DNA from: a virus
Lineage: Duplodnaviria; Heunggongvirae; Uroviricota; Caudoviricetes
Direction: 5' to 3' (one strand)
DNA: 42,995 nucleotides
Virus record (IMG/VR): IMGVR_UViG_2874920711_000002
Span: 1-42,995 of that record
Part shown: positions 40,189 through 41,797 of the stretch, in pieces
Position numbering within the stretch: the stretch's first letter is position 1
Layout: each line of letters opens with the position of its first letter
Made by a program: the position numbers and the translations under genes
The notes under the pieces: model-generated
Databases searched by the model: none
What the model saw: the letters and a program-made list of their open reading frames with translations, nothing else
What the model was told of the DNA's origin: nothing

Positions 40189-40220
40189 GTATCAAAAGCT
40201 ACTTGCCATGCTTTGATACC
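40189..40220. promoter_or_regulatory. OL-like inverted repeat downstream of cI
   Basis: AGTATCAAAAGC-tacttgccat-GCTTTGATACC, carrying the same GTATCA core as the upstream operator region. Confidence 0.35.
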
Positions 40221-40262
40221 TTAGTTACCATGAAACAAAGTTCGTAACTGGGGTATCATCTC

Positions 40263-40625
40263 ATGATCAATAAAGCTACAACTCTTGACTGTCTCGAAGA
40301 ACTGAAAAACCTCGGCAGCCTCATTACACTAATAGCAAAAGCAACACCAGATGCTACGCTCTCTAGCGATATAGAGTCATGCGCAGGACTGGCATGGGAT
40401 ATGACAAATAGCATATCCAGAAAGCTATCGTCAGCAATGCTTTTACAGAACAAAAATTCTGCAATCAACAACCGTCTTCGCACCCAACGCGAAGCCTGCG
40501 GCTTAACAACCGCCGAACTCGCCAGGCTGCTCGATCTCGATGAAGAAGTCATCATCCAGTGGGAGAGCGGAGAGTATGAACCAACTATCAGTATGCTTAT
40601 CCCACTGGCAAATATTCTTGGCTGA
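40263..40625 (+). CDS. Hypothetical protein with C-terminal XRE-type HTH
   Basis: 120 aa; C-terminal …NNRLRTQREACGLTTAELARLLDLDEEVIIQWESGEYEPTISMLIPLANILG is an XRE-family HTH; N-terminal 70 aa unknown; the stop falls where HTH domains usually continue. Confidence 0.5.
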   Translation: MINKATTLDCLEELKNLGSLITLIAKATPDATLSSDIESCAGLAWDMTNSISRKLSSAMLLQNKNSAINNRLRTQREACGLTTAELARLLDLDEEVIIQWESGEYEPTISMLIPLANILG

Positions 40626-40653
40626 GATCCGATGTGGCTGTTAACTGGCGCGG

Positions 40654-40896
40654 TTACTCCTCCGGTGCAACCAAAAAGTGAGGAGCAGCAACACCATAAC
40701 GCATCTCAACAAGTTTGCTCCTTATCTCGCGAAGCTCTTCTACGGAAGAACCAATACCAATGGTGACATAATCGCCGCTTCGCCCCTCAAGGTACATGCG
40801 AACATTTTTATCAATCATTGCGGAAACAGTCTCAATATGAAAACACTTCTGAGACTCGCTATATAGCAGAACATATAAGTCAGCTGAGGAAGCCAT
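40654..40896 (-). CDS. Hypothetical small protein
   Basis: About 80 aa from MASSADLYV…; protein-like composition (…YVTIGIGSSVEELREIRSKLVEMRYGV…); its start overlaps the start of the next plus-strand gene at a CATG. Confidence 0.3.
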   Translation of the reverse strand: MASSADLYVLLYSESQKCFHIETVSAMIDKNVRMYLEGRSGDYVTIGIGSSVEELREIRSKLVEMRYGVAAPHFLVAPEE

Positions 40897-41260
40897 GAAA
40901 AAGTTCGAAAACATAACTGTTCTCCATGTTGATAACTTTGATTATACAAACCAGGAACTTCTCCCGGAGGTTGTAAAGGCAATAGATGTTGCCGATATAG
41001 TGATTAGAGGAAAGAGAATTGTCAAAAACAGGCTCGCATGCACTTCAGGAGCAATGACAGAAACAACCTCACAGCAAGATAATTACGAAGGCATTTGTCT
41101 GGAGCCTGATTCATTTGCGGTAAATGTTTATCATTTATTGCATGCAACACAGGTGTTACATACGTCCAGTAATAACGAAACAAAAACACTTGGCAGTGAA
41201 ATTCTGAATTTTGCATGTGAGTATGCAAAAGCCGCTGTTGAAAAAGAATTAGCGCAATAA
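40895..41260 (+). CDS. Hypothetical protein
   Basis: 121-aa ORF with GAGGAAG Shine-Dalgarno; no recognisable motif. Confidence 0.45.
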   Translation: MKKFENITVLHVDNFDYTNQELLPEVVKAIDVADIVIRGKRIVKNRLACTSGAMTETTSQQDNYEGICLEPDSFAVNVYHLLHATQVLHTSSNNETKTLGSEILNFACEYAKAAVEKELAQ

Positions 41261-41455
41261 CAACAAATATGCCCTGAACGTTTATTGCGGTTTTATCGCT
41301 GGGGATTGTTACAACCTTAATCCACAGGAGGCTTTATTATGACTTTTATAAAGAATATGGCATCACACAAGACCGCCAGCCTTATTGCACAATACGGTGA
41401 AAATTACATGCATATTGCCTGCTTATTTCTGCGTAAAGCATACGGGAAATAACAA

Positions 41456-41797
41456 ATGACACATGAACCCATTAATACATATCGTCGCCGTATAGCTGTT
41501 GCGGCACTCCATAGAATAAAACGTAAAACAGGTGGTGATCTGCTTATTGTTGACCTTCTGGATGGGAACATTACGACCATAGAAATAACAGAACAGTTTA
41601 TAAACCAGTTGCTGTTACGCTTTGAAGGTATTACCCGTGGTGAATTGGGCCGAGTGGAGGGTGAAACCGAAATCCGCACTGCATACCAGAATGCTATCGG
41701 GATTAATCAACATACTGAATACCAGGCTGAAACCGGAAAGTTAATTATAGACAACCTTTTACAAGAGGTTATTGATTACGCGAAAGAAAAATATTGA
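41456..41797 (+). CDS. Hypothetical protein with Arg-rich N-terminus, probably truncated by IS600
   Basis: 113 aa, MTHEPINTYRRRIAVAALHRIKRK…; its TGA stop is the first three bases of the IS600 left end. Confidence 0.4.
   Translation: MTHEPINTYRRRIAVAALHRIKRKTGGDLLIVDLLDGNITTIEITEQFINQLLLRFEGITRGELGRVEGETEIRTAYQNAIGINQHTEYQAETGKLIIDNLLQEVIDYAKEKY

Follow-up and report, generated by a model that had tools for sequence, protein, structure and literature searches.

In phage lambda, OL/PL is separated from cI by the rexA and rexB genes, which the lysogen expresses together with cI, from the cI promoter. The early-left operon of lambda consists of OL/PL, N, a set of accessory genes (ea, ral, sieB, kil, cIII and others), and then xis and int. 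The early-left arm of phiP27-type prophages is a standard arrangement. The DNA considered here ("the window", i.e., the whole stretch of 42,995 nucleotides which was analysed) is the Caudoviricetes record IMGVR_UViG_2874920711_000002. An earlier note, made from the sequence, had placed a cluster of accessory genes downstream of cI in a "rexAB-equivalent position", described as a slot for superinfection exclusion or abortive infection genes, and had regarded it as truncated by insertion elements. From the comparisons described below, the locus would appear probable to be the promoter-proximal part of a CI-repressed early-left (PL-type) operon, belonging to a phiP27-like lambdoid prophage at yecE of Shigella dysenteriae. 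All ORFs which had been listed in the note were recovered, at the same positions or within one base (the 37-aa ORF, given as 41340-41453, is at 41339-41452).

Table 1. Features of the cI region and of the adjoining leftward genes in the window (positions of the window; strand + or -).
Feature	Position	Strand	Basis or remarks
Cro-position gene, 69 aa, phrog_4749	39189..39398	-	ORF list; PHROG E 2.8e-49; same place annotated in relatives
OR-type operator copy GATACTTTGGATTC	39448-39461	-	exact motif match
OR-type operator copy GATACTAAAGTAAC	39472-39485	-	1 mismatch
CI repressor, 218 aa, HTH_3 and Peptidase_S24	39510..40166	+	Pfam E 1e-22 and 1.4e-14
OL/PL-type control region	40180..40257	+	three operator copies and promoter-like site; includes inverted repeat
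Operator copies after cI	40180-40193, 40215-40228, 40244-40257	-, +, -	motif scan
Promoter-like site TTGCCA (40203-40208), 17 nt, TACCAT (40226-40231)	40203-40231	+	promoter scan
XRE-family HTH regulator, phiP27 L10 equivalent, phrog_4739, 120 aa	40263..40625	+	Pfam, PHROGs, alignment to relatives
Antisense small-protein gene, phrog_6104, 86 aa, or 80 aa from 40896	40654..40914	-	PHROGs
phiP27 L08 equivalent, 121 aa, phrog_5451	40895..41260	+	PHROGs; protein comparison
37-aa ORF	41339..41452	+	conserved; next gene begins 3 nt past its stop codon
Basic protein, phrog_1737, 113 of 119 aa left	41456..41797	+	comparison with intact relatives
Left part of IS3-family element	41795..42121	+	93.6% identical to the IS3-family element of prophage L003; HTH_Tnp_1 on product
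IS30 within IS3-family element	42122..42995	+	runs past window end

The domains of CI are those of a LexA-like repressor of the self-cleaving type, and its true start is at 39510, not at 39435; RefSeq gives 657 bp for the gene in relatives. The Cro-position gene is the first in the rightward early operon. An IS element in this rightward operon and a fragmented dnaB were also observed in the window prophage.

Between the cI stop codon (40166) and the first ORF (40263) lies a control region with three copies of the operator motif, which was defined as 14 bp, GATAC-N4-GWTWC. Exact matches to this motif numbered four in the 43-kb window, one in the cro/cI intergenic region and three after cI (0.17 expected), and outside of these two regions the exact motif is absent from the 43 kb. 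The 12-mer CCAAAGTATCAA is present exactly twice in the window, once per control region. The OR-type copies overlap a PR-like promoter (TTGATA-17-TAACAT, 39463 to 39435, minus strand), and their blocks are kept in phiP27 and Stx1_14040. After cI, the operators and both promoter hexamers are invariant in the same two phages, while spacers and flanks vary; the PL-type hexamers TACCAT (-10) and TTGCCA (-35) are only moderate matches to the consensus. In phi467 and Stx2_14040, which have a different cI, the same intergenic space contains a -35 hexamer TTGACA paired with TAACAT or TAATAT, and 11- to 13-mers in that space are common to their own cro/cI intergenic regions. The GATAC-N4-GWTWC sites are putative binding sites of CI. 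Since operators and a promoter-like site stand straight after the cI stop, the ORFs are therefore in the position of N and the early-left genes of lambda, and the assignment to a rexAB-equivalent position had to be given up.

The operator-like inverted repeat at 40189-40220 (GTATCAAAAGC / GCTTTGATAC), which had been pointed out in the note, is present; it overlaps copies of the operator motif and extends to 15-nt arms (40182-40196 and 40212-40226) with 87% complementarity. As an intrinsic terminator of cI this repeat was ruled out, because the stem is AT-rich and a U tract is absent. No intrinsic terminator was found between cI and the HTH gene, so that read-through from the cI promoter may occur in lysogens. 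The predicted fold of 40160-40265 (-27 kcal/mol, z -3.75) would contain a hairpin from two inverted operator copies, which in a read-through RNA would pair the G-rich stretch just 5' of the HTH start codon. No match was obtained in an Rfam scan of 39000-41900.

The possibility of read-through bears on a reading close to that of the note, namely, that the genes form a rexAB-like accessory or exclusion cluster, which is co-transcribed with cI from the maintenance promoter during lysogeny and protects the lysogen against other phages. The lack of a terminator would fit, and so would the base composition, since the region is indeed AT-rich, as had been noticed (GC 0.41-0.43 at 40-42 kb vs 0.50-0.60 across most of the structural module), and encodes proteins of unknown function. 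Further along the same arm, intact relatives encode an SPFH/Band_7 protein and a ParE-like toxin domain (PF24732; in L003, an intact yecE prophage, at 9888-10106 with 63.7 bits vs a cut-off of 24.4, and also in the sister genome L012); neither the window nor its genome contains the PF24732 gene. However, the operators and the promoter-like site between cI and the cluster represent the OL/PL and not the rex arrangement, the string of genes runs on to xis and int in relatives, and the predicted hairpin described above would, in a read-through RNA, also speak against this reading. In addition, PADLOC yielded, besides hits to the generic HTH, a single weak and partial one (119-aa protein, E 0.0016); similarity to RexA, RexB or other known exclusion or abortive infection proteins was not found with PADLOC, Pfam, NCBIfam and PHROGs. 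We consider an exclusion cluster improbable, and the rex-like defence locus proposed for this slot is corrected accordingly in favour of the early-left operon.

Searches of Pfam, NCBIfam, PADLOC and PHROGs with all ORFs and their intact versions returned HTH domains and PHROG families of unknown function only; every ORF of the cluster of at least 86 aa falls in such a family. Among the ORFs, neither an N-type antiterminator nor another named early-left protein (N, kil, cIII) was recognised with these four collections. The earlier remark that the proteins matched nothing which could be named was therefore largely true, and accessory genes of unknown function do adjoin cI. The homology and structure searches which had been suggested for each protein allowed no assignment of function beyond predicted DNA binding of the XRE type.

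The first gene of the leftward operon encodes a helical N-domain ahead of the HTH. The XRE-HTH ORF of the note exists, but as a truncated and inactivated allele, a pseudogene: codon 121, which is Cys in all relatives, is TGA (40623-40625), and the frame is otherwise open to 40766. Intact relatives have 138-242 aa, and sister genome L012 carries an intact gene for 167 aa. With an intact allele (genome L002), PF01381 HTH_3 was matched with 44.8 bits (cut-off 23; E about 1e-11, i.e., 1.2e-11) at residues 72-126, whereas the window allele ends at residue 120, within the domain. In some sister phages the regulator carries a second HTH. Repeats which could be candidate binding sites of the regulator were not found in 40600-41470. 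The nonsense allele is present on 83 contigs, all of them from S. dysenteriae wherever a name was given; exact-pattern scans of GTDB representative genomes for this allele and for the IS junction gave no match.

XRE HTH proteins are common antitoxins, and the HTH protein could perhaps constitute, with one of the small proteins next to it, a toxin-antitoxin or similar two-gene addiction module instead of a regulatory pair of the phage. Weak matches in NCBIfam to antitoxins of the HipB, MqsA and Y4mF types would point to this, as would the ParE_like domain protein in the same arm of relatives; yet these antitoxin matches were sub-threshold, far under the family cut-offs, and covered the generic HTH only. 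No toxin domain was found in the L08, antisense, 37-aa and 119-aa proteins (Pfam, PHROGs, PADLOC, NCBIfam), and a nonsense allele on 83 contigs would be hard to tolerate if the HTH protein neutralised an adjacent toxin. An addiction module appears highly improbable.

The antisense gene and the HTH gene are convergent, and the former overlaps L08 at its 5' end. A start at 40914 is possible, since GGAG precedes that ATG. The antisense protein is kept in ASU11 despite diverged DNA, and the tail of the HTH gene in the plus frame is not kept there; the phrog_6104 family comprises 125 representative clusters with a common S..Q..FH motif. The diverged copy in ASU11 and the wide family settled that a real small-protein gene, and a widespread one, is present on the minus strand. 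In a codon-position test of this ORF, the 20 distinct close alleles varied too little to tell the two strands apart. The domain of the antisense protein was found elsewhere fused to an XRE HTH.

This gene alone could be a moron-type insert with its own promoter in the lysogen, producing a protein for host benefit or exclusion, or an antisense RNA against the regulator. It has the opposite orientation in an operon whose other genes are co-directional, is preceded by a Shine-Dalgarno sequence of its own (GGAG) and belongs to a real and widespread family; it converges on the regulator gene at the 3' end of the latter, and no terminator was found after it. Candidate minus-strand promoters are located within L08 (TTGACA-17-CACTAT near 41025-40997, and a perfect TATAAT near 40946), but these are consensus matches only. 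No similarity to any defence protein was detected, and the gene is always situated within the cassette of HTH, antisense and L08 genes, with a fixed position in 80 of 80 viral contigs; this constancy fits a part of a regulatory cassette better than a freely mobile moron. A moron is possible, though somewhat doubtful; it is compatible with the early-left reading, in which the plus-strand genes stay an ordinary operon.

The 121-aa protein has 94% amino-acid identity to phiP27 L08; in it, a disordered linker joins a small N-domain to a C-terminal helical hairpin, which is the only confident part of the structure model. Its C-domain is homologous to the N-domains (type B) of the regulators of PhiR49_2 and Stx2_14040 (BLASTP 2e-9 and 5e-9); between L08 and the N-domain of the regulator of the window type (type A), no similarity was detectable by BLASTP and hhalign. 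A comparison of the L08 model with the PDB (Foldseek) yielded nothing significant, and profile searches of PDB sequences with the antisense protein, L08 and the 119-aa protein gave no significant match. The 37-aa ORF is found in 77 of 80 viral loci and is annotated in Stx1_14040 and PhiR49_2, with 86-95% amino-acid identity.

The note had named conserved early-left synteny as an observation which would speak against its proposal, and such synteny was indeed found, both in intact E. coli prophages and in a further six sequenced phages. In phiP27, ASU11, phi467, Stx2_14040, PhiR49_2 and Stx1_14040, cro and cI are followed by the HTH regulator, by L08 (or only its C-domain), by the 37-aa ORF and by further genes; the five E. 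coli phages besides phiP27 keep this order despite different immunity regions. A co-directional string to xis and int was seen in phiP27, ASU11, Stx2_14040, Stx1_14040 and the intact yecE prophage L003. Of the excerpts of the six phages, five reach xis and four have int annotated; that of PhiR49_2 ends at xis, and that of phi467 shows neither. Genes annotated as Ea22 and EaA are present in the early-left arm of PhiR49_2, and int is truncated in L012.

Intact relatives of the basic 119-aa protein end in ...EKYISGGIN, and the copy of the window is six residues short through the end of an IS3-family element; as had been stated, the stop codon of the 113-aa ORF (TGA, 41795-41797) consists of the first three bases of this element, a putative IS600. 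The AlphaFold2 model of the 119-aa protein (pLDDT 87) gave no informative fold match. HTH_Tnp_1 was found on the product of the first ORF of the IS3-family element and rve-type domains on the ORF past IS30, the labels being "IS3 family transposase" or "transposase"; positions 41795-42995 are 99.7% identical to RefSeq sites with "IS30-like element IS30 family transposase" and a partial "transposase" ahead. The S. dysenteriae chromosome L010 is 100% identical to the window across 10 kb, and its IS cluster abuts a yecE remnant, followed by yecN; the remainder of the arm, together with xis, int and a part of yecE, has given way to the cluster there. The genes which are missing from the window's genome are retained in a sister genome which has this IS junction, in agreement with the suggestion that the insertion had removed further members. 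In the window's genome the early-left operon is dead: its regulator gene is interrupted by a nonsense codon, an IS3-family::IS30 composite cuts off the end of the 119-aa gene, and xis and int are replaced. Since the operon was already disrupted by a stop codon and insertion sequences, the region downstream of cI reflects the usual decay of a prophage rather than a new defence cluster. For the window itself the significance is small, i.e., it documents an early-left arm of the phiP27 type which became fixed in a defective state in S. dysenteriae.

In lysogens of intact relatives, dimers of CI would occupy the three sites (5' of the -35, in the spacer and -10, and in the start region) and the operon would be silent. 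Self-cleavage of CI, triggered by the SOS response and carried out by the S24 peptidase domain, would free the promoter; the early products would be the regulator, L08, the 37-aa and 119-aa proteins and those of the accessory genes further along, with xis and int following. The regulator probably dimerises via its helical N-domain and adjusts early-left transcription or that of the lysis-lysogeny decision. L08 and the antisense protein are likely modulators of an XRE-type regulator, because of the homology of the hairpin to N-domains of sister regulators and the fusion of the antisense domain to an XRE HTH; sharing of domains is the one basis for the roles proposed for all three proteins. In 80 of 80 viral contigs the HTH regulator, antisense phrog_6104, L08 and the 37-aa ORF are found in one order, and they recombine with different immunity regions. 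They might together be an uncharacterised regulatory switch heading the early-left operon, with L08 and the antisense protein binding and modulating the regulator and the antisense gene expressed in the lysogen; we regard this as rather unlikely.

In long-tailed Stx1 and Stx2 phages, too, the early region begins with this cassette. A comparison of long-tailed Stx phages examined the "early regions", i.e., the genes responsible for phage induction, and linked their variation to levels of toxin production (PMC11333237). If functions were assigned to the regulator, L08 and the antisense gene, this could be of modest wider value, helping to explain differences in induction among Stx phages, because the cassette heads early regions whose variation has been linked to toxin levels.

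With lambda rexA/rexB, the cluster shares the location 3' of cI on the same strand; it differs by the preceding operators and promoter, and sequence or profile similarity is absent. The HTH domain of the regulator resembles by profile the N-domains of P22 C2 and 434-type repressors (PDB 1adr, 2r1j, 1sq8; E 3.5e-7 to 1e-4), but is located at the C-terminal end, behind a helical N-domain of about 65 aa, and a peptidase domain is lacking; the N-domain of P22 C2 is among the closest relatives of known structure. Unlike the PL operon of lambda, the locus has no recognised N homologue, its first gene encodes an XRE HTH, one conserved gene is antisense, and no protein has detectable sequence similarity to named early-left proteins of lambda. 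Like that operon, it lies directly past the repressor gene, behind several operators which overlap a promoter, and contains mostly small accessory genes without an assigned function, co-directional with cI and ending in xis and int. The closest counterpart is phiP27 (NC_003356), which is intact, whereas the copy in the window carries IS insertions and a nonsense codon and has lost its left end. In phiP27 unrelated sequence replaces the segment 40649-40807 of the window (most of the antisense gene), and L07 and L06 follow in place of the 119-aa gene. Otherwise the window is co-linear with L11 (cI)-L10-L09-L08-L07; cI, the operator region, L08, the 37-aa ORF and most of the HTH gene are 90-96% identical in DNA sequence, phiP27 shares all three operator copies and both promoter hexamers, and the integration module of phiP27 is of the same type as that of intact yecE prophages.

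In the window prophage, with its structural genes on the minus strand at 1-37 kb, all ORFs that the earlier note had named downstream of cI were found in the ORF list; only the 37-aa ORF had been placed one base off (Table). The AT-richness noted for the region was confirmed, with a GC content of 0.41-0.43 at 40-42 kb vs 0.50-0.60 across most of the structural module. Window 39115-41794 was 99% identical to the yecE-integrated E. coli prophages L002 and L003, and the alignable blocks of the Stx2e phage phiP27 were 90-96% identical to the window.

The 14-bp pattern GATAC-N4-GWTWC is matched exactly at four places in the entire window (0.17 expected), one on the cro/cI side and three after cI. 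A 12-mer, CCAAAGTATCAA, is present in exactly two copies in the 43 kb, at 39452 (cro/cI intergenic) and at 40184 (18 bases past the cI stop), and an inverted copy with two mismatches is found at 40213-40224. The three post-cI copies and both hexamers of the promoter-like site amid them are retained in phiP27 and in the more distant Stx1_14040, with differing spacers and flanks. In phages phi467 and Stx2_14040, which possess another cI type, the equivalent intergenic space has a TTGACA -35 hexamer with TAACAT or TAATAT, and shares 11- to 13-mers with each phage's own cro/cI region. Judged by its sequence, the region after cI is a classical OL/PL layout (leftward operators and promoter of lambda type) of predicted operators, to which the operator-like inverted repeat at 40189-40220 belongs. 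An intrinsic terminator at this repeat was rejected, since the stem is AT-rich and a U tract is absent. Because operators and promoter precede the first ORF, the ORFs occupy the lambda N or early-left position, and the rexAB-equivalent position proposed in the earlier note had to be abandoned.

Table. Features of the window prophage
Feature	Position	Strand	Remarks
TumE-family toxin-antitoxin domain protein	36215-36502	plus	95 aa
HVO_A0114-family DNA-binding protein	36504-36863	plus	119 aa
IS ORFs with DUF4096 and DDE_Tnp_1 domains	38319-39055	minus	
cro-position gene	39189-39398	minus	
GATAC-N4-GWTWC, exact copy	39448-39461		cro/cI side
GATAC-N4-GWTWC, one mismatch	39472-39485		
CI repressor gene	39510-40166		real start 39510; 218 aa; HTH_3 + Peptidase_S24
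GATAC-N4-GWTWC, exact copies	40180-40193, 40215-40228, 40244-40257		after cI
Promoter-like site TTGCCA-17-TACCAT	40203-40231		amid the three post-cI operator copies
HTH regulator	40263-40625		window allele truncated
Antisense gene	40654-40914	minus	
L08	40895-41260		
37-aa ORF	41339-41452		
IS3-family element	starts 41795		first three bases = stop codon of 113-aa ORF
IS30	42122		inserted in IS3-family element

The order cro, cI, HTH regulator, L08 (named after the phiP27 gene), 37-aa ORF and onward was the same in the E. coli phages phiP27, ASU11, phi467, Stx2_14040, PhiR49_2 and Stx1_14040, as well as in intact E. coli prophages; the phage excerpts reached xis in five of six cases, and int was annotated in four of the six. 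In some phages the place of L08 is taken by a protein of 63-66 aa that equals the L08 C-domain. PhiR49_2 has genes annotated as Ea22 and EaA within this arm.

The regulator comprises 138-242 aa in relatives; in the window a TGA stands at the position where all relatives have Cys121, within the HTH_3 domain (residues 72-126). This domain is almost invariant among phages, some of which have a second HTH in the regulator, and the N-domain is of at least three types, each travelling with the cI type. The tail past WLLTG is not conserved and merely reads across the antisense gene. In ASU11 the DNA of that gene has diverged, yet the minus-frame protein is retained, and the plus frame terminates early. 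Proteins of 60-100 aa that share a conserved S..Q..FH motif were found by a HMMER all-against-library search, in 125 representative clusters; in one protein (P0237) the domain is fused to an XRE HTH. The antisense gene was situated between the HTH domain and L08 in 80 of 80 IMG/VR loci. GGAG precedes its ATG at 40914, and candidate minus-strand promoters are located inside L08.

In the AlphaFold2 model of L08, a disordered linker joins a small N-domain to a helical hairpin at the C-terminus, which is modelled with confidence. This hairpin is 43-48% identical to the N-domains of the PhiR49_2 (E 2e-9) and Stx2_14040 (E 5e-9) regulators; no similarity to the window-type regulator N-domain was detectable. 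Several types of helical hairpin domain occur as regulator N-domain, as stand-alone 63-66-aa protein directly after the regulator, or as L08 C-domain (loci L006, 3704-4638, and L007, 3743-4785; protein P0187). P0187 combines an L08 N-domain with a C-domain resembling, by eye, the regulator N-domain of ASU11. From these sequences the domain types look as if they had been shuffled between regulator and L08 genes.

The 37-aa ORF shows 86-95% amino-acid identity in relatives. The 113-aa ORF corresponds to a 119-aa protein, many of whose residues are invariant, minus the final six; its model was good (pLDDT 87), and fold searches gave nothing informative. At position 28, the window protein (41456-41797) and that of E. 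coli O121 (L002, 9326-9685) have Asp for an Asn invariant in a 34-sequence family alignment; at position 35 these two and L003 have Leu for a nearly invariant Pro.

Chromosomes with the same IS junction were obtained by exact look-up of the IS-truncated 113-aa protein; NCBI names of the exact matches were Shigella dysenteriae or Shigella. CP026824.1 (GCA_002949875.1, locus L010) was 100% identical to window 33000-42995. There the yecE 3' remnant, and then yecN, cmoA and cmoB, come immediately after the IS3::IS30 composite and an element whose transposase has a DDE_3 domain. Since the IS cluster abuts the yecE remnant, the remaining arm has been lost in the window's genome, together with about half of yecE: genes for Rem-like 71-76-aa, ParE_like, 130-136-aa, 62-aa, SPFH/Band_7, ORF6N or DUF5406 and DUF4222 proteins, xis and int. 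A sister genome (L012) with the same junction has kept these genes beyond the IS cluster, and its regulator is intact (167 aa); the suspicion that further members had been removed was therefore well founded, with IS insertion first, and deletion and nonsense mutation later. An overlapping pair directly after the 119-aa gene (L003, 9701-10106; L012, 15326-15746), missing from the window, encodes a phrog_340 protein of 71-76 aa with a weak match to Pfam 'Rem' and a protein of 72 aa with a ParE_like toxin domain, possibly a toxin-antitoxin pair inside the early-left operon.

The composite (compared at window 41795-42995 and in loci L009 and L012) is found with identical insertion point in 1,245 complete genomes of E. 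coli, one inspected copy being in an unrelated island context, and three times in the 20-kb L012, a stretch of a Shigella chromosome (3148-1137, 10404-12783, 18764-20342). It therefore seems to spread or duplicate as a unit, despite its interrupted IS3 transposase gene.

Other features of the prophage were also noted. Another IS element (about 38206-39114), absent from L002 and L003, lies just downstream of the cro-position gene and cuts it off from the remainder of the rightward early operon. The gene for a DnaB-like replicative helicase, single in relatives, is split into three ORFs of 98, 111 and 193 aa (31916-33303, minus strand), a further sign of a defective prophage. The TumE/HVO_A0114 pair (36215-36863), opposite in strand to the neighbouring early-right genes and also found in intact E. 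coli relatives, has the look of a moron-type insert, either toxin-antitoxin or defence.

In lysogens, CI would fill the three sites and silence the operon, which RecA-stimulated self-cleavage of CI would free. Regulator and small proteins would then be produced early, before xis and int; the regulator would dimerise via its helical N-domain, and L08 and the antisense protein would modulate it. In cI read-through RNA, two inverted operator copies (40214-40258) would fold as a strong hairpin (-27.1 kcal/mol, z -3.75, for 40160-40265), predicted to stop 4 nt short of the HTH start codon and to take the G-rich stretch there into its pairing; as a speculation from the folding model, it could restrict translation from such read-through RNA.

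PADLOC, Pfam and NCBIfam matched only the HTH among these ORFs and provided no evidence for a defence function. With its operator/promoter layout, synteny, domain content and decay, the region is probably the early-left arm belonging to a prophage of phiP27 type, here decayed; what the earlier note had observed was correct, its interpretation only in part. The only leads of some interest come from the cassette in which regulator, antisense gene and L08 stay together in fixed order, and from the domains that link it to XRE regulators. A comparison of long-tailed Stx phages examines 'early regions' and gives these genes no functions (PMC11333237). Such an arm is already known, having been annotated in phiP27 as the hypothetical genes L07-L10 since 2002.
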